Under the pieces are notes generated by a model. The model searched no databases. It was not told where the DNA came from and saw only the letters and a program-made list of their open reading frames with translations. A stretch of DNA of 64,000 nt, from NCBI RefSeq assembly GCF_965216895.1, contig NZ_OZ244205.1, positions 34,791 to 98,790 on the forward strand, read 5' to 3'. The position numbers were made by a program, and so were the translations under genes. The DNA comes from Nisaea sp. GTDB lineage: Bacteria; Pseudomonadota; Alphaproteobacteria; Thalassobaculales; Thalassobaculaceae. Shown here piece by piece: positions 7,256 to 39,233 of the stretch. The number at the start of each line of letters is the position of its first letter. The first letter of the stretch is position 1.

Positions 7256-9070
7256 TTATTTTTGTGCTGCGTCCTCCGGCGGAAGACGCCGGAAGCTGAC
7301 GGGGCTTGAGAAGCCTCTTATAGCTTGGCGATCCTGCTCCATCCATTGCGAATTCAGAATGTGCGCCGCCGCCGGATCGGCGGCAATCGTCTCGCTCAGA
7401 ACGATCTCACCCGGCCGTGCCTTGCCTTGAAGGCGGGCCGCCATGTTCACCGTGCCGCCGAAATAGTCGAGCCGCCCATTGAGCGTGACGGCGATGCAGG
7501 GACCGGCATGAAGTCCGAGTTTGAGGCCGATCGGGCTGCCCTGGTGCCGTTGGTTGAAGTCTCGCACGTGAGCGCGGATCTCCAGTGCTGCAGCCAGCGC
7601 GCTTTCCGGCTCGGTGAAGGCGGCCATTACCGCGTCGCCGATGGTCTTCACCACGCCGCCGTCATGCTCGCGGACGATACGGGAGAGAAAGTCGAAATGC
7701 TCGCGAACCAGGCCGTAGGCCGGGGCGTCGCCGATCCGTTCGTAGAGCGCAGTGGAGCCGGAAAGGTCGGTGAACATCAGTGCGATATGGGCGATGCCGA
7801 CCTCGTCGCCGCCGCGCAGCACGTCTTCGGCGAAGAGATGGCGGAAGGCCTGCATCGTGGTGACCCGGTGCGCGGTCAGCGCGTCTTCGGCCCAGTCCCG
7901 CGCCTCGACGATGACCACGCGCGGGCGCTCGCAGCGGTTTCTCAGCGTCACGATGCCCGGCGCCGCGGTCTCCGCTTCCGCCGCGATCCCCTTCTCGTCG
8001 ATCGCGATGGCAGGGAAACCCCCGCCGGAAAAATCGAGAATGCGCTCCGGGCCCGGCTCCAGCGTCCGGATCCGGTAGGACCCGGGTGCGAGCTCCGTCT
8101 CCACGTCTTCGCTGCCGCCGGGAGCGATGCGGACCTGCAGGCGGACATGCGGCGTCGACATCGGACCGAAGAGGCAGAACTCGCCATGCACCACCTTGCG
8201 GATGCTGGCCGCGGGCTGGAAGGTCAACTCCACATTGCGGGCGAAGTCGCGGTCGTAGCTGACGTTGCAGGACGCGCAGTGCGCTCCCTGGGGCAACTCG
8301 TCGAGACTGGTCTCGGAGAGCTTGGCGCCCTTGCAGCGCGGGCAGAGCAGGTCCCAGCGGCTTTCCAGCAGCCCGTCTTTTACCGCCTCGAGACAGAGCT
8401 CGATGACGTGGCGTTCCTCTTCCTGCCACATGCGGGCAAGTTTCAGAGGGCGGATGCTCATCAAATCGACTTCCTGCGCCGAGAGCAGCCAGTCGGCGAG
8501 CGTTTGACCGAGCCCGTGCCCGTAGCGCGACGCATCGACGCGGCCGAGTGCCGTTTCCAGTCTCCGGCTGTGGGTCTCGTCGAGCATCAGCGGTTCGGTC
8601 GGGTAGGGCGTGTCCGCCTGCTCCTTCGCCCAGGCTTCCACCTGCTCGGCGACGCGATGGAAGTCGCGCTCGGTCGCGGCGAAGACGCCCTTGCGTGCGA
8701 TCAGGCCGCCGAGCAGTCCGGCCGGTTCGACATCGATCCGGTAGCGGACGGTACAGCCGCTTTCCCCGTCCTCGAAACGGACGAGGACATTGAGCTGTTT
8801 CAACGGACCTTTCAGGAACAGTCGGCGATGGCGGAACCAGCGCCCGGCGGCCCATTCCTGGGGGATGTCTTCCCAGTGCAGGGTGAAGGGGCCGAGTTTC
8901 GCCGTGGCGAAGAAGCGGACACTGCCGTCCGGCTGCAACTCCTCCCGGATCTGGTGTTTCGGCAGGCCGATGGACTCGTTGTAGCGCCTGGTGTCGGCGA
9001 GCGCTTCCCATACAAGCTCGCGCGGTGCCTCGAAGTGCCGCACGAACTCCCGGGAGAGCGGGGCGCTCAT
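7256..9070 (-). CDS. Class III adenylate cyclase with N-terminal SRPBCC-like and DUF5939-like domains
   Basis: [33 protein letters not shown] (K and D indicate ATP specificity); CPRC...CASC; ATGA overlap with upstream gene. Confidence 0.85.
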
Positions 9071-31455: not shown

Positions 31456-32577
31456 TCATCGGGCCTCTTCGCCTTGGGGAATGGGGGCGGTGTCCGACTT
31501 GGCGCTGATAGTTTGCAAGGCATCGAAGAAGGTCGCGACAGTCGCTTTCGGCAGGCCGCGCGTAATGAAGATGATCTTGCTGCGGTGGTCTTCCGTCGGC
31601 CAGGTGTCGAGCCAGACCGGTTCGTGGAAGATATGCTGAACGCCGTGAATAATGACCGGCGTTCCCGGTTTCTCGAGGATATTCAGGATTCCTTTGACGC
31701 GGAGAAGGTCCGAGCCCTTGTAGGAGATCAGGAGGTCGAGGGCGACTGTGAAGGCGGCGGCGCTGATGGGCCTGTCCAGCTCCAGGCTGAAGGCTTCGAT
31801 GTCCGCGCCATGACGGTTGATATCGTGATGATGTTCGCCATGGTGATGCCCATGATCGTGATCGTGATGATGCGGATGGTTATGACCATCCGAGTAGGCC
31901 TCTGAATTGAGCCATTTCTGAACGTCGAGGCTCTTCGAGTGGGGATCGTAAAGCGACGTATTGAAGAGTTCCCTCAGGTCGAATGCGGGATCGTTCCGGT
32001 CGAGGATTCCGGCGCCGGGGTTGAGCTTGTGCAGTCGGGCCCTCAGAGCCATGAGATCCGAGCGGGATGTCGGATCACACGCCATGTCCGTCTTGGTCAG
32101 GATGAGACGGTCCGCCACGGCGACCTGCTTGACGCTTTCTTCGTGGTTCTCGAACGTCATTTCGGCCGTGACGATATCCACCGCCGTGACCACGCCGCCA
32201 AGCATATAGCGCCGTCCGAGCCGTGGGTCGGTCATCAGGGTATGAATAACCGGCGCAGGGTCGGCCAAACCGGTCGTTTCGATGATCAGGCGGTCGAACG
32301 CCGGGATTTGTCCTTCGCCCTGGCGCCGATGCAGGCTGAGAAGCGTCTCCCGGACATCGCCGCGGATGGTGCAGCAAAGACACCCGGAGGTCATTTCGAC
32401 GGTCTGTTCAAGGGAATGTTCGACCAGGAACCCGTCAAGGCCGACCTCTCCGAACTCGTTAACGACGACGGCCGTATCGCTGAACCTGGGATCGCGCAGG
32501 ACCTGCGTCAGCAGAGTTGACTTGCCGCTTCCCAGAAAGCCGGTGAGCAGGGTTACGGGAATTGGCGATCCGGTCAT
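31456..32577 (-). CDS. COG0523/CobW-family metallochaperone GTPase
   Basis: GFLGSGKST, NEFGE, GCLCC, ETTGLA.P, His-rich tract HNHPHHHDHDHGHHHGEHHH, LLRVKG. Confidence 0.95.
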   Translation of the reverse strand: MTGSPIPVTLLTGFLGSGKSTLLTQVLRDPRFSDTAVVVNEFGEVGLDGFLVEHSLEQTVEMTSGCLCCTIRGDVRETLLSLHRRQGEGQIPAFDRLIIETTGLADPAPVIHTLMTDPRLGRRYMLGGVVTAVDIVTAEMTFENHEESVKQVAVADRLILTKTDMACDPTSRSDLMALRARLHKLNPGAGILDRNDPAFDLRELFNTSLYDPHSKSLDVQKWLNSEAYSDGHNHPHHHDHDHGHHHGEHHHDINRHGADIEAFSLELDRPISAAAFTVALDLLISYKGSDLLRVKGILNILEKPGTPVIIHGVQHIFHEPVWLDTWPTEDHRSKIIFITRGLPKATVATFFDALQTISAKSDTAPIPQGEEAR

Positions 32578-32999
32578 TGCAGGGCCTTACCTTTCGCGCC
32601 TTCGTTGCACTCGATGCAGCAGCCCTTGAGTTCGACACTTCCCGTCCGGACGTCGAAACCGATGTCGTTGGCTATTTCCCTGAGCCGTGATTCGATGGCT
32701 GGATCCGAAAACTCGGAGACCGCACCGCATTGCTCGCAGATGGCAAAGACACCGGGGCTGGCGTGCTTGGGGCAGGTGCAGATTATATAGGCGTTGAGGG
32801 ACTCGATCCGGTGAACGATGCCGCGCGCGATGAGCCGATCGAGCGCACGGTAAACGGTAGGCGGTCCGGACACGCCGTCGCTCTGCAACCGATCCAGAAT
32901 CTGATAGGCGGTCAGCGGACCGTTGGCGCGATTAAGCACGCGGAGCGTGAGGAGTTCATTGGAGCCGCGTTTTTTTGCAGTGTTTTGTGCGAGACTCAT
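32574..32999 (-). CDS. zur: Fur-family regulator, Zur-like
   Basis: LTAYQIL..L, PPTVYRALD.L...G.VHRIES.NAYI.C, CEQC and CIEC; ATGA-coupled to the COG0523 gene. Confidence 0.8.
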   Translation of the reverse strand: MSLAQNTAKKRGSNELLTLRVLNRANGPLTAYQILDRLQSDGVSGPPTVYRALDRLIARGIVHRIESLNAYIICTCPKHASPGVFAICEQCGAVSEFSDPAIESRLREIANDIGFDVRTGSVELKGCCIECNEGAKGKALQ

Positions 33000-33346: not shown

Positions 33347-33433
33347 GCCCCTGTGGCGGAATCGGTAGACGCGGCAGACTCAAAATCTGTTTCCGGCAAC
33401 GGAGTGGGAGTTCAAGTCTCCCCGGGGGCACCA
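33347..33433 (+). tRNA. tRNA-Leu(CAA)
   Basis: Acceptor stem GCCCCTG/CGGGGGC, D-loop GGTAGAC, anticodon arm GCAGA-CT-CAA-AA-TCTGT (anticodon 33381-33383), long variable arm, TTCAAGT T-loop, encoded CCA; 87 nt. Confidence 0.97.
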
Positions 33434-33560
33434 AATCATCGCTGGATGTTTGCAGGTATGCGCAATTCCGCGGCACGCGCTGCAATCCATCAGTTATCCG
33501 GGCAGGCCGGTCCGTTCTCGCGCAACCGACGGCACATCGCGCCTCCAGGCGCCATGCGGC

Positions 33561-35633
33561 CTAGCTCTTTTGCGATAAGACCCATGCGCCATCCCAGTGC
33601 TCCGGCGGGTGCTCGATCAGGCTCTTGCACCGCGCGATGTAGACGCTGGTGACCGGGTCGTCCGGAGCATCGGATCGACATTCCCTGAACAGCCGCAAGG
33701 CCGCGTCGAAATCGCCCCGTCGGTAGGACCGGACTGCGCCGGCAAGCAGCTCCGGATCGGTGCGGAACTCGGCCTGGCCCGGACGGAGCAGTTCGAAAAT
33801 CGTGCAGGCTTCGGTCCGGCCCTTGACGACAACACGGTCGATTTCACGAAACTCCAGAGCGTCGGGTGCTTCGAGAAGGGCGTGCGTGCGATCGGTGAAA
33901 ATGGCCGAGGCACCATAGAGCCTTGTCAGCCCTTCGACCCGCGATGCGAGATTCGCGGTATCGCCAATGACGTTTGAATCGAGCCGCCTTCCGCCGCCCA
34001 ATGCTCCGATCATCAACGGACCGCTATTGATTCCGAGGCCGAAGAATATCGGCCTCTCGCCCCGGTTCTCGCGCTCGCGATTGAAGGCGATCTGGGTGTC
34101 CATCATGGCTTCGGCGCATCGCAGCGCATCGTCGGCGGACCCCGGAAACAATGCCATGATCGCATCTCCAAGATACTGGTTGATGAATCCGTTCGCATCC
34201 GCGATCAGGGGCTCCATCGTTGCCAGGAATTCGTTGAGAGCGACGAAAATTTCGGTCGGACCCAGTCTTTCGGACAGCATTGTGAAGCCGCGAATATCGG
34301 CGAACAGGACGCTCATGGTTTTCAGAACGCTGTCACCGGTCCGGATCTCCTCGATGCTGGATCTGTCCAGAAGCTCGAGAAACTGGAAGGGAACGAAACG
34401 GCTATAGGACTTGGTCAGGCTGGCTAGCCGCTGATTGTGCGCCATGACCTGGGCATTCAGTTGACGGTTTGTCCACAGCCCGCCCGCCTGACGGACGAGG
34501 ACGGAAAAGGCTACGCGGATATCGGGCCAGATTTGCTCGTAGAAATCCATGTTTTCGGCGGTCACCCCGGCAAGAATGACACCGCCGAGTTCGTCGTGTC
34601 GGTCAAGGAACGGGCAGATGATCGCCGTCGCGAAACCGAGGTCGGACCATTGTTGCAGGACCTCGCTCTGCTCGTCCGCTATCCAGCATTCTCGGCAAGA
34701 GAACCATTCGTTCCGGTAGGGCAGGAAGCTTGGTGCGTTCTCTAGGCCAAACTGGGAGACAATCTCCATTCGTGCCGGACGTGCCCCGTCGATCTGCATG
34801 AAGACGGCGGCTTCCAGCTCGAAAGCCTCGATGATGGCTTCGAGTGTGAGCTGGAAAAACGCCCCATCGTTTTCGACATCCAGGGTCTTGGCTGTGTATT
34901 CCTGAATGGACTTGAACCGCATCAACTCGTCATCGACCTGATCTTTGGCGCGGATAAGGTCGCGCTGGAGAACGAGCTGGCGTCCATGCTCCGTTTCCAG
35001 GCGGCGATTTTGTTCGATCAACTCGAGATTCAGGGCTCTGTTGTTGAGGACAGAACCGATCTGGCGCGCCATCACCGTGAATGCTGCGCTCCTCTCCGCC
35101 GTGATCGGCTCATAGTGTTCGCAATTGTCTGTCGTGACGCCGCCCAGAATGATGCCGCTCAACGTGCCGTTCGCGCTCCAGAGCGGACAGGCTATCGCTT
35201 CTCGCAGCCCCAGCGAGCGCCAGCTTGCGAGGATGGCATTGTTCTCATTGATCAGGCTGCTGGATTGGTCAGTGAACCATGCGGTCTCGTAATCCAGGTC
35301 GACCGGTTTTTGGTCGAAGCCGAAATGGCCCGCGGTCTGCAACTTACCCGGGGTATCCGAGGGGCGCAGGACGAGTGCGACTTCGAACTCGAAGGCATCG
35401 ATCACCGCTTCAAGCGCGTTGTCGAGAAAATCTCTGTCCGAGTCGGCGGCGAGAGATGTTTCGAAAAAGCTCTGGATGGTCTGGAAGCGCCGGAGCTCCT
35501 GATCGATCCGGGATTTCGCCGCGGTCAGCTCGCGCTCGAGTACCAGTTGCTCCGCAATCCGTTCTTCGAGCCGGGCACAATGCGCACTGAGCTCGTCATA
35601 GCTTGACCGACGATCCTTCACCGACCTCGCCAA
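33561..35633 (-). CDS. Class III nucleotide cyclase with two tandem coiled-coil/GAF-like repeats and a TPR-like tail
   Basis: VLFADIRGFT, INQYLGDAIMALF, GINSG, DSNVIGDTANLASR; 190-aa internal repeat; C-terminal WDG. Confidence 0.9.
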   Translation of the reverse strand: MARSVKDRRSSYDELSAHCARLEERIAEQLVLERELTAAKSRIDQELRRFQTIQSFFETSLAADSDRDFLDNALEAVIDAFEFEVALVLRPSDTPGKLQTAGHFGFDQKPVDLDYETAWFTDQSSSLINENNAILASWRSLGLREAIACPLWSANGTLSGIILGGVTTDNCEHYEPITAERSAAFTVMARQIGSVLNNRALNLELIEQNRRLETEHGRQLVLQRDLIRAKDQVDDELMRFKSIQEYTAKTLDVENDGAFFQLTLEAIIEAFELEAAVFMQIDGARPARMEIVSQFGLENAPSFLPYRNEWFSCRECWIADEQSEVLQQWSDLGFATAIICPFLDRHDELGGVILAGVTAENMDFYEQIWPDIRVAFSVLVRQAGGLWTNRQLNAQVMAHNQRLASLTKSYSRFVPFQFLELLDRSSIEEIRTGDSVLKTMSVLFADIRGFTMLSERLGPTEIFVALNEFLATMEPLIADANGFINQYLGDAIMALFPGSADDALRCAEAMMDTQIAFNRERENRGERPIFFGLGINSGPLMIGALGGGRRLDSNVIGDTANLASRVEGLTRLYGASAIFTDRTHALLEAPDALEFREIDRVVVKGRTEACTIFELLRPGQAEFRTDPELLAGAVRSYRRGDFDAALRLFRECRSDAPDDPVTSVYIARCKSLIEHPPEHWDGAWVLSQKS

Positions 35634-35648
35634 TGCCGGAAGGCCAGA

Positions 35649-36854
35649 CTAGTTGGCCACGTTGCGCACGATCGGGAACAGCGACGTCGTGTAGCTGTGA
35701 AACGCGTTTTTCCCCGCGAGCCTGGCATATTCGCTGAAACCGTAGATTCCGAGCCAGGGCACCATCTCATCTCCGCAGATCGGGTGCTGCATCTTTGCAA
35801 TGATCTCGTCCTTCAGCACGCGGTTGAACATCAGGCGGCCCCGGGCCATGCAGTCGGCATGGAAAACCGCGACCGGCCTGCGGCCGGCCAGCCGATCGCC
35901 CAAGCGCTTCATCAGGCGGTCGACACCCTCGAAAATGAGATGTTCGTCCCGCTGCATCAAAGTGTACCTGGTGCCGACGGCAACGGAGGTCGGCAGATAG
36001 AAAGATTGCTGATCGTCCGACACCTTGATCGGAACGCGCAGGATCTGCGGATTGTCGTAGTCGGCGCTTTCTTCGTCGTTCAGATCCATACCCAGGCCGG
36101 CGATCGGAAGGGCATCGGCCGGAGGGGTAGCGGCCGGGAGCCCGAGCTTGGCCATCAGTGTGGGCCACGCGGGTTGTCCGTCCAGTTCCAGTATCCGGTT
36201 GGCGTCGCATTTCGTGACCTCGAACGCCACCGCTTCGAGCGGCACGGATCCATGGTGAACGCCGGTAACAAGCTCGAGCGAGGGATCTGAAAAACCGACA
36301 AGGACCAGTCCGTCTTCCATGACATTCTCGTCGTGGAACTGGAAGGTCCGCTTTGCCTTTCCGTTGTCCGCCGTCGTCAGACCGAAGATCGTGATGTCGG
36401 CGCCAAACACCTCTTCGATGCCGTCAATCACCTTGTCGCCCGAAACATCGAGCCCGGCAGAAAGGACATAGATCATATTGATGTTGTCGGATTGTGCTTT
36501 CAGGTCTGTCGCGACAGATCGGGCGAGGTCCGCCGAGTTCCGGCCGTTCAAGCCGGCTCCGGATGCAACGGAAATCTCGTCCCCGGTGATGGCCATGAGT
36601 GCCAAGGATCGCATCGTCTCGCTGACGCCTTCACTCGCGATCACGCCGCTGCCACTTCCTCCGACGATCTGGGCGGTCGGACAGGCTTCCCGCGCGGCGG
36701 CGATGAGTTGCGGAAAACTGTGCCCAACGGTCGAATAGACGATCAGCAGGTTGCAACTGTCGGCGTCGTCCTCCTCGAAAGCGCGATCAAGGGATTCCCT
36801 GACCGCAGTATTGGGGTTTACGGCATTGCTGCTTCCGGACCGGAAATGCAGCAT
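35649..36854 (-). CDS. FIST-domain protein (FIST_N plus FIST_C; NosP-like)
   Basis: IVGGSGSG.I, VHHG..P, VTKC..NRILELDGQPA, DCMARG, G.YGFSE; GGAGG RBS before MLHF. Confidence 0.82.
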   Translation of the reverse strand: MLHFRSGSSNAVNPNTAVRESLDRAFEEDDADSCNLLIVYSTVGHSFPQLIAAAREACPTAQIVGGSGSGVIASEGVSETMRSLALMAITGDEISVASGAGLNGRNSADLARSVATDLKAQSDNINMIYVLSAGLDVSGDKVIDGIEEVFGADITIFGLTTADNGKAKRTFQFHDENVMEDGLVLVGFSDPSLELVTGVHHGSVPLEAVAFEVTKCDANRILELDGQPAWPTLMAKLGLPAATPPADALPIAGLGMDLNDEESADYDNPQILRVPIKVSDDQQSFYLPTSVAVGTRYTLMQRDEHLIFEGVDRLMKRLGDRLAGRRPVAVFHADCMARGRLMFNRVLKDEIIAKMQHPICGDEMVPWLGIYGFSEYARLAGKNAFHSYTTSLFPIVRNVAN

Positions 36855-37418
36855 GGTTTCCTCCCAGACCGCCGTTTTCCGGCGTTTATTGATTGACACA
36901 AAAGAAACTGTATTTTGAGTATCGATCGAGTATAGCCGAACTCTCGCGCAATGTACGATTTTCGACCTTCTTAAAACCAGTTGAGGCGAAGAGGCGGTCG
37001 GTAGCCAATCTTCTCTGGGCACAGGAACAGGCAATCTTCCGGGCTGCGGTCCCCGAAGTGGGGCATCGCGCCTCTCCTGCGCGCATGCGGTCGAGGCCCA
37101 AGAGCCGCATGCGTGAGGGAACGGTGCGGGACGCGACAACGACCGCTGCGGCGGAGCCTCTTCGAGCGACGTATTCAGTCGGGATAGACCGCCAGCCGGC
37201 GAATAGCCGCCATGCCCGTCGCCATCGTCGACAGCACAATCCGGCGGCCGGTCGCTCAATCGCGGATATTCTTGCGAAACCGCGCAAGAGGCGCTCGGGC
37301 ACTGATGCCGATCAATGTCCTGAGGATACCAGGTTTCCGTGGCCCTGACCTGGTCTGCTACGCGACAAAGAAAGGAAAAGGCACTTCAAACATTCTCTCC
37401 CGGAAGAGAGAGCCTCGC

Positions 37419-37655
37419 TTATTTCAGTGCTTCGGCGGCGTTCAGGTAGGACTGGCAGGCATCGACCTTGAGTTGGTCGCCGGCGGCTTCCTCGACGCAG
37501 GCCTGATACTGCTCCACAAGCTTCAGCCGCTGACGGGCGACGTCTTCCTGTGCCTCGAAAGCCTTTTCCTGCGCTTTGGCAGCGTCATCTGCCGGCGTTG
37601 AACAGCCGGCCAGGAAGCCGGCGAGGAGAATCGTTACCGGAAGGTAATGGCGCAT
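37419..37655 (-). CDS. Small hypothetical lipoprotein
   Basis: Lipobox LAG-C, helical 78 aa, two further Cys. Confidence 0.7.
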   Translation of the reverse strand: MRHYLPVTILLAGFLAGCSTPADDAAKAQEKAFEAQEDVARQRLKLVEQYQACVEEAAGDQLKVDACQSYLNAAEALK

Positions 37656-37894
37656 GATAGTGGCTCCGTTGCGATATCTGGGACTGAAGCGAGGATCTGG
37701 CGACCAGAATTGCCGTCAGTGTCCTGATTTGCAAGAGGCTGGCTCGATCCGGCTCACGACATTGTTCGGTCCCAGCATGGCTGTCGGAAACATGGTCTCC
37801 GGAAGAGATCGATACCGCGCCTCTGCGTGGTTCAATCTATGGGAATAGATCGGCACTCAACATCGCTCGTTGCCTCGCGATAGGGCCGTGCGCA

Positions 37895-37910
37895 GTAACC
37901 GTTCCTTAAC
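37895..37910 (+). promoter_or_regulatory. CtrA-like binding site
   Basis: GTAA-CCGTTCC-TTAAC versus TTAA-N7-TTAAC, one mismatch. Confidence 0.45.
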
Positions 37911-38000
37911 GCGATTATGGCCACACTGCGCTAAATTCTTGCAAAAACAGCGATTTTTTGCGGTAATTGAGGTAATCACCAATGCTCGGGGTGTCGCCAT

Positions 38001-39233
38001 ATGGCGAACAACATTAATGTCGCGCAGACATTTGAACGGCGCGGGACGACCGTGCCTTTCACGGCGAACGAGTCGCTGCGTCACGTGCGCGCCCGGATCT
38101 ATCAGCATGGCAATGACAGGGTGCTCGAGGCCGTGATCCCGAGCCTCGGCGGCGGACGGCGGGGCGAGTTGATGGTGGTGCCCTGGAAGGATCTTCCGGA
38201 TTTCGTCCAGCTCAACGAACGGGACCTGCAATTGCACGACGGTGTTCCTGGGATCGTCGGAAAAAACGGAATCGATCCGTTGCAGGTCCGCGATCTGGTC
38301 AACAAGGTGAATGCCGCCTATTCGGACGATCCGGACGTCCGTGCCCAAGCCCAGGCGCAGGCGAAACAGGACAGCGAGGACAAGGAAGTGGTCCGCATGT
38401 CCTGTATCGCGCAGCTGATGAAGGAGTGCGGGATCGAACGGGGCGATCCGGTGATGGCGAACGCCAATACCAAGACCCTCGTCGAGTTGATGACGGCGGA
38501 GGAATCAAAGACCCATTTCGACCTCGAGATGCTGATCGACCGGGTGTTCCTCTTCGCCTCCCAGCGCAGCGGGGTCAGCGTCGAGAATGTCCGTGAATGG
38601 CTGGAGCCGCTGGTCGGACTGATCACGCCCTTCGGCACGGTGAAGGGCACGCAGAAGGACCGGACCAACGGGCATCTGTTCCTCGAACATGTGAATCTGA
38701 TGGAATTCCGTAAATCCGTCGCGGCCTATCTCGAGGAGAAGCCCGACGAATACGCTGCAACGGCGGAGATTCTGCTTCAGGTGATCGATCAGACCATCAT
38801 GTATGTCGACGAGCGGATCGTGACACTGGACTCCCTGCTCGGCAGTTTCGCCAATGTCTTCGGCAAGCAGGACGCGAATGTGTCCTACCTGATCAAGCTG
38901 CGCCGGGATGTGGCCTTTGCGCTGGACGGCTGGTCGAGCCTGATCGAGCGTTGGACGGAGGCGGATGCCGACGATTGCAAGGTCGCGGGCAGCACGGAAC
39001 ATCGCGACAGGGCCGTTGCCTATGTCATGAGCTTCCTGCCGATCATCCCGCACAAGGAGCTCTATCCGGACGACGGGTTCGATACCCAGGCAAGCATCGA
39101 GCGTGCCCGTGTGAAGATCGTTTCCGCAATGCACTCCTGGTCGACAGAGGAACTCGATGTCGAACTGGCGCGTCGGGTCGAGAAAGGGCAGAAGCAGGTC
39201 GATGACAAGGAGGCCGGGCGGCTGATTTCCTGA
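38001..39233 (+). CDS. Hypothetical protein, 410 aa
   Basis: Long ORF with genome-like codon usage and soluble composition; N-terminus (TFERRG..VPFT...R.R...P...GG.RG...VPW) recalls an uncharacterised Rhodospirillales family. Confidence 0.8.
   Translation: MANNINVAQTFERRGTTVPFTANESLRHVRARIYQHGNDRVLEAVIPSLGGGRRGELMVVPWKDLPDFVQLNERDLQLHDGVPGIVGKNGIDPLQVRDLVNKVNAAYSDDPDVRAQAQAQAKQDSEDKEVVRMSCIAQLMKECGIERGDPVMANANTKTLVELMTAEESKTHFDLEMLIDRVFLFASQRSGVSVENVREWLEPLVGLITPFGTVKGTQKDRTNGHLFLEHVNLMEFRKSVAAYLEEKPDEYAATAEILLQVIDQTIMYVDERIVTLDSLLGSFANVFGKQDANVSYLIKLRRDVAFALDGWSSLIERWTEADADDCKVAGSTEHRDRAVAYVMSFLPIIPHKELYPDDGFDTQASIERARVKIVSAMHSWSTEELDVELARRVEKGQKQVDDKEAGRLIS

Follow-up and report, generated by a model that had tools for sequence, protein, structure and literature searches.

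The window analysed here is a stretch of 64,000 nucleotides from the alphaproteobacterium Nisaea sp. (contig NZ_OZ244205.1), and our subject is a pair of adjacent genes within it, the first encoding a stand-alone FIST/FIST_C protein and the second a class III nucleotide cyclase. Comparison across genomes identifies a linkage of FIST to a helix-GAF-helix module at the start of its partner protein, rather than to the cyclase as such, and this linkage is two-way and near-obligate. We read the pair as the accessory-sensor logic of NosP with a different FIST subfamily, a dedicated adaptor for which Pfam and NCBIfam offer no model, and a cyclic mononucleotide (cNMP) as output. It appears reasonably probable, as judged from sequence, that the two genes form an operon-like cassette in which FIST docks on the module and controls cNMP synthesis. 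That FIST regulates the cyclase is inferred from genomics only; its binding to the module, the sign of its effect, its ligand and the nucleotide produced are inferences as well. An earlier note, made from the letters of this DNA, knew of no characterised example of such a system, and our full-text literature searches likewise found no paper on a FIST-cyclase pair or on the helix-GAF-helix module.

Linkage of FIST to the partner module

A profile of FIST orthologues, scanned against one genome per prokaryotic species, returned 503 loci, of which the best 80 were examined. The orthologues at these 80 loci are 43-93% identical to the window protein, the 93% belonging to a Nisaea metagenome-assembled genome (MAG), with 43-50% identity between phyla; their hosts are Alpha-, Gamma- and Betaproteobacteria, Magnetococcales, Desulfobacterota, Myxococcota, Bacteroidota, Gemmatimonadota, Verrucomicrobiota, KSB1 and an archaeon, a Methanolobus MAG. 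The gene downstream was then searched with our own profile hidden Markov model (HMM) of the module wherever the contig was long enough for that gene to be read, and in 73 of these 75 loci the gene directly after FIST starts with the module (residues 1-30; E values 1e-41 to 1e-98). The window shows the same order, with FIST directly upstream of the module, and its genome contains a single FIST gene and a single module-bearing protein, mutually adjacent. Read in the opposite direction, the module proteins P0142, P0255 and P0262 all have FIST/FIST_C directly upstream (a fourth, at a contig edge, was left out of the count), and in 400 evenly sampled genomes of the phylum the module occurs twice (G142 and G029), each time with FIST directly upstream, bringing the reverse linkage to five of five informative module proteins. 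On these counts the adjacency in the window is not a product of chance.

The module stays constant while the output changes, cyclase being a minority output. The output domains of 55 partners comprise 33 HisKA/HATPase, 15 cyclase, two SpoIIE, two STAS, two GGDEF (one of them the module-less protein at locus L072, considered below) and one sigma-54 activator, and an unbiased set of 77 cluster representatives includes 57 histidine kinases, seven cyclases (about 9%), four GGDEF proteins, three SpoIIE proteins and two sigma-54 activators. At least eight output changes can be counted on the FIST tree, and its well-supported branches force at least three origins of cyclase output. A profile search of 1.84 billion representative proteins places the module family at 676 clusters (50% identity), 222 of them at E<=1e-30, with the module N-terminal in the best 150 of the 676 matches. 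The gene-neighbourhood survey that the earlier note had put forward as a check finds the pair again elsewhere. The conserved partner of this FIST family is the N-terminal module, most often attached to a histidine kinase, and not the cyclase domain.

The gene pair and its cyclase-linked relatives

Both genes lie on the minus strand, with the following features.

36854-35649, minus strand: FIST + FIST_C gene, 401 residues (open reading frame (ORF), Pfam); proposed accessory sensor
35633-33561, minus strand: class III cyclase gene, 690 residues from TTG (ORF, translation, Pfam Guanylate_cyc)
36860..36865, minus strand: Shine-Dalgarno-like GGGAGG, 5 nt 5' of the FIST ATG (read from the sequence)
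35634..35648, minus strand: intergenic spacer of 15 nt, from the FIST stop to the cyclase TTG (sequence and terminator scan)

The FIST start is fixed by a near-invariant M1-L2 in a 91-sequence alignment, together with the GGGAGG ribosome-binding site. For the cyclase an alternative start, GTG at 35621, four codons in, is equally plausible; it matches the closest orthologue (L002) and gives a 27-nt spacer. Gaps between FIST and partner genes at orthologous loci run from -4 to about +30 nt. No terminator-like hairpin was found on the coding strand between the two genes, and an Rfam scan of 33.0-38.2 kb returned a tRNA alone, with no riboswitch or small RNA upstream of FIST. Membrane segments are absent from both proteins, for which the top 19-residue Kyte-Doolittle mean is 1.3-1.4. 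The arrangement described in the earlier note, of two co-oriented genes 15 nt apart encoding a soluble stand-alone FIST protein and a cyclase without transmembrane segments, next to tRNA-Leu, is thus borne out.

When 78 FIST proteins are placed on a maximum-likelihood tree, the window protein falls in a clade with 100% support in the Shimodaira-Hasegawa-like approximate likelihood ratio test (SH-aLRT), 23 of whose 25 members are followed by a cyclase; the cyclase partners at L035 and L066 arose separately, among branches where kinases prevail. At least 23 other genomes keep the FIST-cyclase pair. A third conserved gene was sought in the 23 cyclase-type loci and none is universal, so that FIST and cyclase, as the sole conserved genes, constitute a two-gene cassette. 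In a Desulfobulbaceae MAG, FIST, FIST_C, module and cyclase occur as one protein of 965 residues (L035:6001-8898). This fusion was considered as strong Rosetta-stone evidence and downgraded to suggestive only, since one sequence from one contig is all that shows it. Recurrence of the pair, the cyclase-linked clade and the one fused polypeptide support the earlier note's reading of the locus as a putative two-protein FIST-cyclase module.

Two variations were seen among the cyclase-type loci. An amidase gene (PF01425) directly follows the FIST-cyclase pair in nine loci of one marine subclade (e.g. L004:8749-10155); the window lacks it. The partner is split in a chromosome-level Thalassobaculaceae MAG (L003:7233-8717): a module-only ORF of 222 residues ends at 7901 and the cyclase domain resumes at about 7944 in another frame, which may be a frameshift error or a genuine split gene.

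The helix-GAF-helix module

The cyclase protein begins with two tandem modules, followed by a helical linker and the catalytic domain, and ends in a TPR-like tail.

34986..35624, minus strand: partner module copy 1, residues 4-216, helix/GAF-like/helix (own profile HMM, 2.9e-75)
34386..35027, minus strand: partner module copy 2, residues 203-416 (own profile HMM, 1.1e-79; AlphaFold2 (AF2); Foldseek)
33801..34319, minus strand: class III catalytic domain, residues 439-611 (Pfam; 26-domain alignment; motif positions)
33564..33773, minus strand: TPR-like C-terminal tail, about 70 residues (weak TPR_19/TPR_14 matches)

Residues 1-430 consist of two tandem copies of the module, each of about 220 residues and 35-36% identical to one another. 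No Pfam or NCBIfam model matched this region, and Pfam GAF, GAF_2 and GAF_3 matched neither copy even at E<=1; a single orthologue (L054) gives a GAF_3 match at E 0.053. The AF2 model of copy 2, built from a 72-sequence alignment (predicted local distance difference test score (pLDDT) 91.5), has an alpha/beta domain between an N-terminal helix of 50 residues and a C-terminal one of 60. Foldseek assigns the alpha/beta domain to the GAF fold with a probability of 1.0 and a template-modelling (TM) score of up to 0.75 on the target, the matches including the dual-sensor kinase 6ob8, the sigma-54 regulator 3k2n, PtsP (3trc) and phytochromes. The HMM scan proposed in the earlier note accordingly yields FIST, FIST_C and Guanylate_cyc, with Pfam GAF unmatched.

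Conservation in the module is concentrated in its helices (mean information 2.3 bits, against 1.6 bits for the GAF sheet and loops). The best-conserved residues are charged and helical, namely D35, E37, R40 and E66, with E73 and E75 also conserved; the N-terminal helix carries the motif D-x-E-L-x-R-F (residues 234-240 of the cyclase protein, in copy 2), and the GAF part contains no invariant polar pocket residue. Conservation that peaks on charged helix residues fits an interface rather than a ligand pocket.

Architectural parallels are Anabaena CyaB1/CyaB2 and the GAF-regulated phosphodiesterases (PDEs), which also place two tandem GAF folds N-terminal to their catalytic domain, class III in CyaB1/CyaB2, where long helices join GAF and catalytic domains in a parallel dimer. 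The GAF domains of CyaB1/CyaB2, however, match Pfam GAF models and themselves bind cyclic AMP (cAMP), whereas the window modules match no GAF HMM, each begins with a 50-residue N-terminal helix bearing a conserved charged motif, and modules of this type are always accompanied by a FIST gene.

The catalytic domain and its likely product

Pfam Guanylate_cyc (PF00211) matches the cyclase protein at 5.2e-16 (59.2 bits, above the cut-off of 21.9). The metal-binding residues D446 (FADIRGFT) and D490 (YLGD) and the transition-state residues N561 and R565 (TANLASR) are all present, and are kept in 26 FIST-linked cyclases. At the base-specifying positions the protein has Q486 and N554 in place of the canonical adenine pair, Lys with Asp or Thr (or the guanine pair, Glu with Cys, Ser or Gly). 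All 23 alphaproteobacterial FIST-linked cyclases share this Gln/Asn pair, which identifies it as a selected state and not decay. The Desulfobacterota FIST-linked cyclases (L035, L066) have a guanylate-cyclase-like Glu/Ser pair. The TPR-like tail is itself conserved among cyclase orthologues, with tblastn matches in nearly all cyclase-type loci.

Mycobacterium tuberculosis Rv0386 carries the same Gln/Asn pair and reportedly works as an adenylate cyclase, with guanylate cyclase as a side activity (Castro et al. 2005). Rv0386, with Gln for Lys and Asn for Asp, differs in having a cyclase, ATPase and LuxR-type helix-turn-helix architecture and no FIST partner; the point about it is alluded to in a preprint (bioRxiv 10.1101/2024.03.06.583649). 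Given the Gln/Asn specificity pair, the sequence suggests that the window enzyme most likely makes cAMP, possibly with cyclic GMP (cGMP) as a side activity. The genome contains about ten class III cyclase domains and nine cNMP-binding domains, so that readers for a cNMP signal exist.

The C-terminal helix of the second module leads straight into the segment SYSRFVPFQFLELL and thence to the catalytic domain. This segment resembles the cyclase-transducer element, a feature reported in cyclases of class IIIa/b (Ziegler et al. 2017).

The FIST protein and its relation to NosP

The window FIST protein matches Pfam FIST (PF08495) at 1.3e-33 (117 bits, cut-off 23.2) and FIST_C (PF10442) at 1.1e-9 (39 bits, cut-off 28.5), and its AF2 model (pLDDT 93.3) has the FIST fold. 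The best match among solved structures is the FIST domain of human FBXO22 (8ua3, 8s7e; Foldseek probability 1.0, E 2e-10, TM score 0.51-0.60); Foldseek returned no bacterial FIST structure from the PDB copy used, and a search by sequence against solved structures gave no match. Whilst it is the closest solved fold, and has a protein-recognition role in reading the dimeric BACH1 BTB domain, the FBXO22 domain is 11-12% identical to the window protein and belongs to a eukaryotic ubiquitin-ligase subunit without a signalling-enzyme partner. About 29 residues are invariant in the window FIST clade, including His, Cys, Asp, Glu, Arg and Lys.

The earlier note had called the protein FIST/NosP-like. 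That description holds for the FIST fold and the operon logic: NosP is likewise a stand-alone FIST + FIST_C gene beside a cytoplasmic signalling enzyme with no recognised sensor domain, as in Pseudomonas aeruginosa PA1975/76, Legionella pneumophila lpg0279/78, Vibrio cholerae and Burkholderia pseudomallei BPSS1647/46 (partners NahK, NosK and VpsS), and it binds and regulates that adjacent kinase (PMC12570481, PMC6769237, PMC8846402). It does not extend to NosP identity. The window protein scores 31 bits on the NosP equivalog model (NCBIfam NF041558), which has a cut-off of 450 bits, and shows 14-18% identity to a set of 20 true NosP proteins; with so low a score and identity, sensing of heme or nitric oxide (NO) is unsupported. 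The two groups have in common H201, invariant in both, together with D334-C335-x-x-R338 and E375, and about 15 further invariants are specific to the window clade (among them H45, E79, D190, W230, Y266, N268, R302, E304, K348, E350, W367, Y371 and H386).

The partners differ as well. A class III cyclase stands where NosP has an adjacent NahK/NosK-type histidine kinase, and it begins with helix-GAF-helix modules, unlike the NahK-like partners in 16 NosP loci, which start with a coiled-coil helix and a PAS domain. The module was considered as a component of true NosP partners and rejected (HMM E>10; hhalign probability 0.4%), and it was not found within 1.5 kb in 20 bona fide NosP loci. The window genome has no NosP-type match at E<=1e-20, one being present in 82 of 401 genomes of the phylum, and no H-NOX/HNOB domain.

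Two other known arrangements resemble the pair in outline. In the H-NOX accessory sensors (HnoX/HnoK and H-NOX/diguanylate cyclase) a dimeric output enzyme is under the control of a small sensor, by way of helical linkers, and in animal soluble guanylate cyclase a class III cyclase is joined to a gas sensor. Their sensor fold, however, is unrelated to FIST, and in the window the sensor and the cyclase are separate polypeptides.

A hint as to the cue comes from long FIST proteins of the same family, of about 780 residues, almost all of which (about 50 clusters) are fusions to Old Yellow Enzyme (OYE), a flavin mononucleotide oxidoreductase (PF00724). Two such fusions (L105:5001-7355 and L106:5001-7343) adjoin a second stand-alone FIST gene followed by a histidine kinase, and at L102:1676-2773 a separate OYE gene lies directly upstream of FIST. 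No OYE gene was found near FIST in the window or in the best 80 loci, the association belonging to other branches. The FIST family may be tied to redox or flavin chemistry.

Proposed mechanism and alternatives

In the mechanism that we propose, the stand-alone FIST/FIST_C protein would act as an accessory sensor for a cytoplasmic cue and would dock, without a covalent bond, on the helix-GAF-helix module at the N-terminus of its partner, here a tandem pair. Cyclase activity would respond to changes in the FIST-module complex, relayed by the helical spine, a route suggested by the way in which the C-terminal module helix runs into SYSRFVPFQFLELL and then into the dimeric catalytic domain, and the product would be read by the cNMP-binding proteins of the genome. 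Precedents for such docking are NosP, which binds the kinase encoded beside it and tunes its activity, and the FBXO22 FIST domain in its protein-recognition role.

Several points weigh against this mechanism. Two of the 75 readable loci depart from the usual order: at L072 (7265-8152) the gene after FIST encodes a REC-GGDEF protein that lacks the module, and at L051 (293-973) a module-bearing ORF lies upstream of FIST. The L035 fusion, as a singleton on one contig, could be an assembly or frameshift artefact, and the Gln/Asn pair leaves the product of the cyclase uncertain. The locus was not found in any of four RNA-labelled runs carrying the same species label; the sequencing runs that do hold it appear to be from one sample of the organism itself. 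Tight adjacency would also be expected if FIST made or removed a small ligand read by the GAF-like module. That last arrangement, in which the module senses and FIST, as an enzyme or a carrier, supplies the ligand or breaks it down, would suit the unusual conservation of FIST for a sensor (43-50% between phyla, with about 29 invariants), the classical binding of small ligands by GAF domains in CyaB1/CyaB2 and PDEs, the fusions that tie the family to an enzyme, OYE, and secondary Foldseek matches of FIST to Toblerone-fold cyclic amide hydrolases. These hydrolase matches are poor, however (TM score about 0.38, root-mean-square deviation about 13 Å), no FIST protein is known as an enzyme, and conservation within the module is lowest in the GAF sheet and loops (1.64 bits), with no invariant polar pocket residue; we judge such a reversal of roles to be decidedly unlikely. 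Less credible by far is that the genes are merely co-inherited or co-expressed, with FIST acting on some other target and the cyclase regulated solely by its own GAF-like modules. The genome does offer possible targets in its roughly ten cyclases and many kinases, but a linkage that is two-way and near-obligate over more than eight phyla, is one-to-one in the window genome, survives repeated output swaps and includes one fused form makes this reading very improbable.

Two further possibilities concern the signal at either end of the pathway. Were FIST here a heme protein sensing NO, as in a true NosP-type system, the pair would be an NO-regulated cAMP/cGMP switch and a two-protein analogue of soluble guanylate cyclase. 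The fold family and operon logic are those of NosP, the residues that the two groups have in common could form a common cofactor site, and a genome without H-NOX or NosP has no other dedicated NO sensor of these types. We nevertheless regard this as unlikely in view of the score of 31 against 450 bits and the 14-18% identity, the clade-specific invariants missing from NosP, the helix and PAS architecture of NosP partners (hhalign probability of 0.4% against the module), and paralogues of the clade fused to OYE flavoproteins, which indicate a different chemistry. At the output end, the cyclase domain may be other than an adenylate cyclase, making mainly cGMP or another cyclic nucleotide, or having a low-activity or regulatory role. 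The Lys-to-Gln and Asp/Thr-to-Asn changes, kept under selection in all 23 alphaproteobacterial FIST-linked cyclases, and the guanylate-cyclase-like Glu/Ser of the Desulfobacterota enzymes lend this some substance; set against them are the intact metal-binding and transition-state residues and Rv0386, reportedly an active adenylate cyclase with the same Gln/Asn, and the possibility is a doubtful though not a negligible one. Docking of FIST on the module, with control of the cyclase, remains the explanation that we prefer.

The genomic site

The pair lies beside a tRNA gene that marks a variable locus.

33347..33433, plus strand: tRNA-Leu(CAA), marking the variable locus (ARAGORN, Rfam, congener comparison)

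The variable site spans from this tRNA to the gene at 38001 (window 33347-38000; 59% G+C). Among nine other species of the genus one has the cassette, and so does one among nine other genera of the family. A congener that lacks it has 358 bp between the tRNA and the right-hand flanking gene, and this distance grows to 4.3-4.6 kb where the cassette is present; in other congeners the gap is 3.7-10.6 kb, with different cargo at the same site, and one of them has partial tRNA repeats. The G+C content of the cassette is 59.5%, against 63.9% for the genome. TRNA-derived direct repeats were sought in 33.25-38.05 kb and none flank the cassette. The gaps in congeners, the other cargo and the low G+C point to acquisition at a tRNA-associated variable site, the cassette being accessory in this lineage; this reading of mobility is drawn from congener comparison only.

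Three neighbouring features were noted. Within 1.1 kb upstream of FIST, 37422-37655 (minus strand) is a gene for a predicted lipoprotein of 77 residues (MRHYLPVTILLAGFLAGC... lipobox), of which no homologue was found in any fetched locus. The gene at 38001-39233 (plus strand) encodes a 410-residue protein without a Pfam match and adjoins the variable site in six of six congeners checked, at 75-85% DNA identity. On the other side, 31456-32999 (minus strand) contains two genes that overlap by 4 nt, one for a Fur-family regulator and the other for a CobW-type GTPase containing a His-rich stretch; they look like a Zur/zinc-chaperone pair unrelated to the cassette.

Implications

FIST is a large sensor family that is still poorly understood. 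To our knowledge the only bacterial members to have been studied are NosP and CdpA, tied to kinases or to enzymes of cyclic di-GMP metabolism, and the ligand chemistry of these two is debated. The present locus adds a much more conserved FIST subfamily, wired to an adaptor for which Pfam and NCBIfam hold no model, and through this adaptor the subfamily could drive cyclic mononucleotide synthesis. Annotation would gain in some 680 protein clusters, in which the first 220 residues at present carry no label.

More tentatively, the pair may be one form of a portable two-protein sensory system, ranging over eight or more bacterial phyla and extending to archaea, that responds to a redox, flavin or electrophile cue (hinted at by the OYE fusions of paralogous FIST domains) rather than to NO or heme and here feeds into cAMP or cGMP; we consider this wider proposal possible, though less than probable. 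If it is true, one soluble FIST protein docks on a standard adaptor that has been attached to kinases, class III cyclases, GGDEF, PP2C, STAS and sigma-54 outputs. The D-x-E-L-x-R-F helix is a concrete candidate for the docking element, and a soluble two-protein system with an easy cAMP/cGMP read-out could reveal both what FIST senses and how its signal is transmitted.

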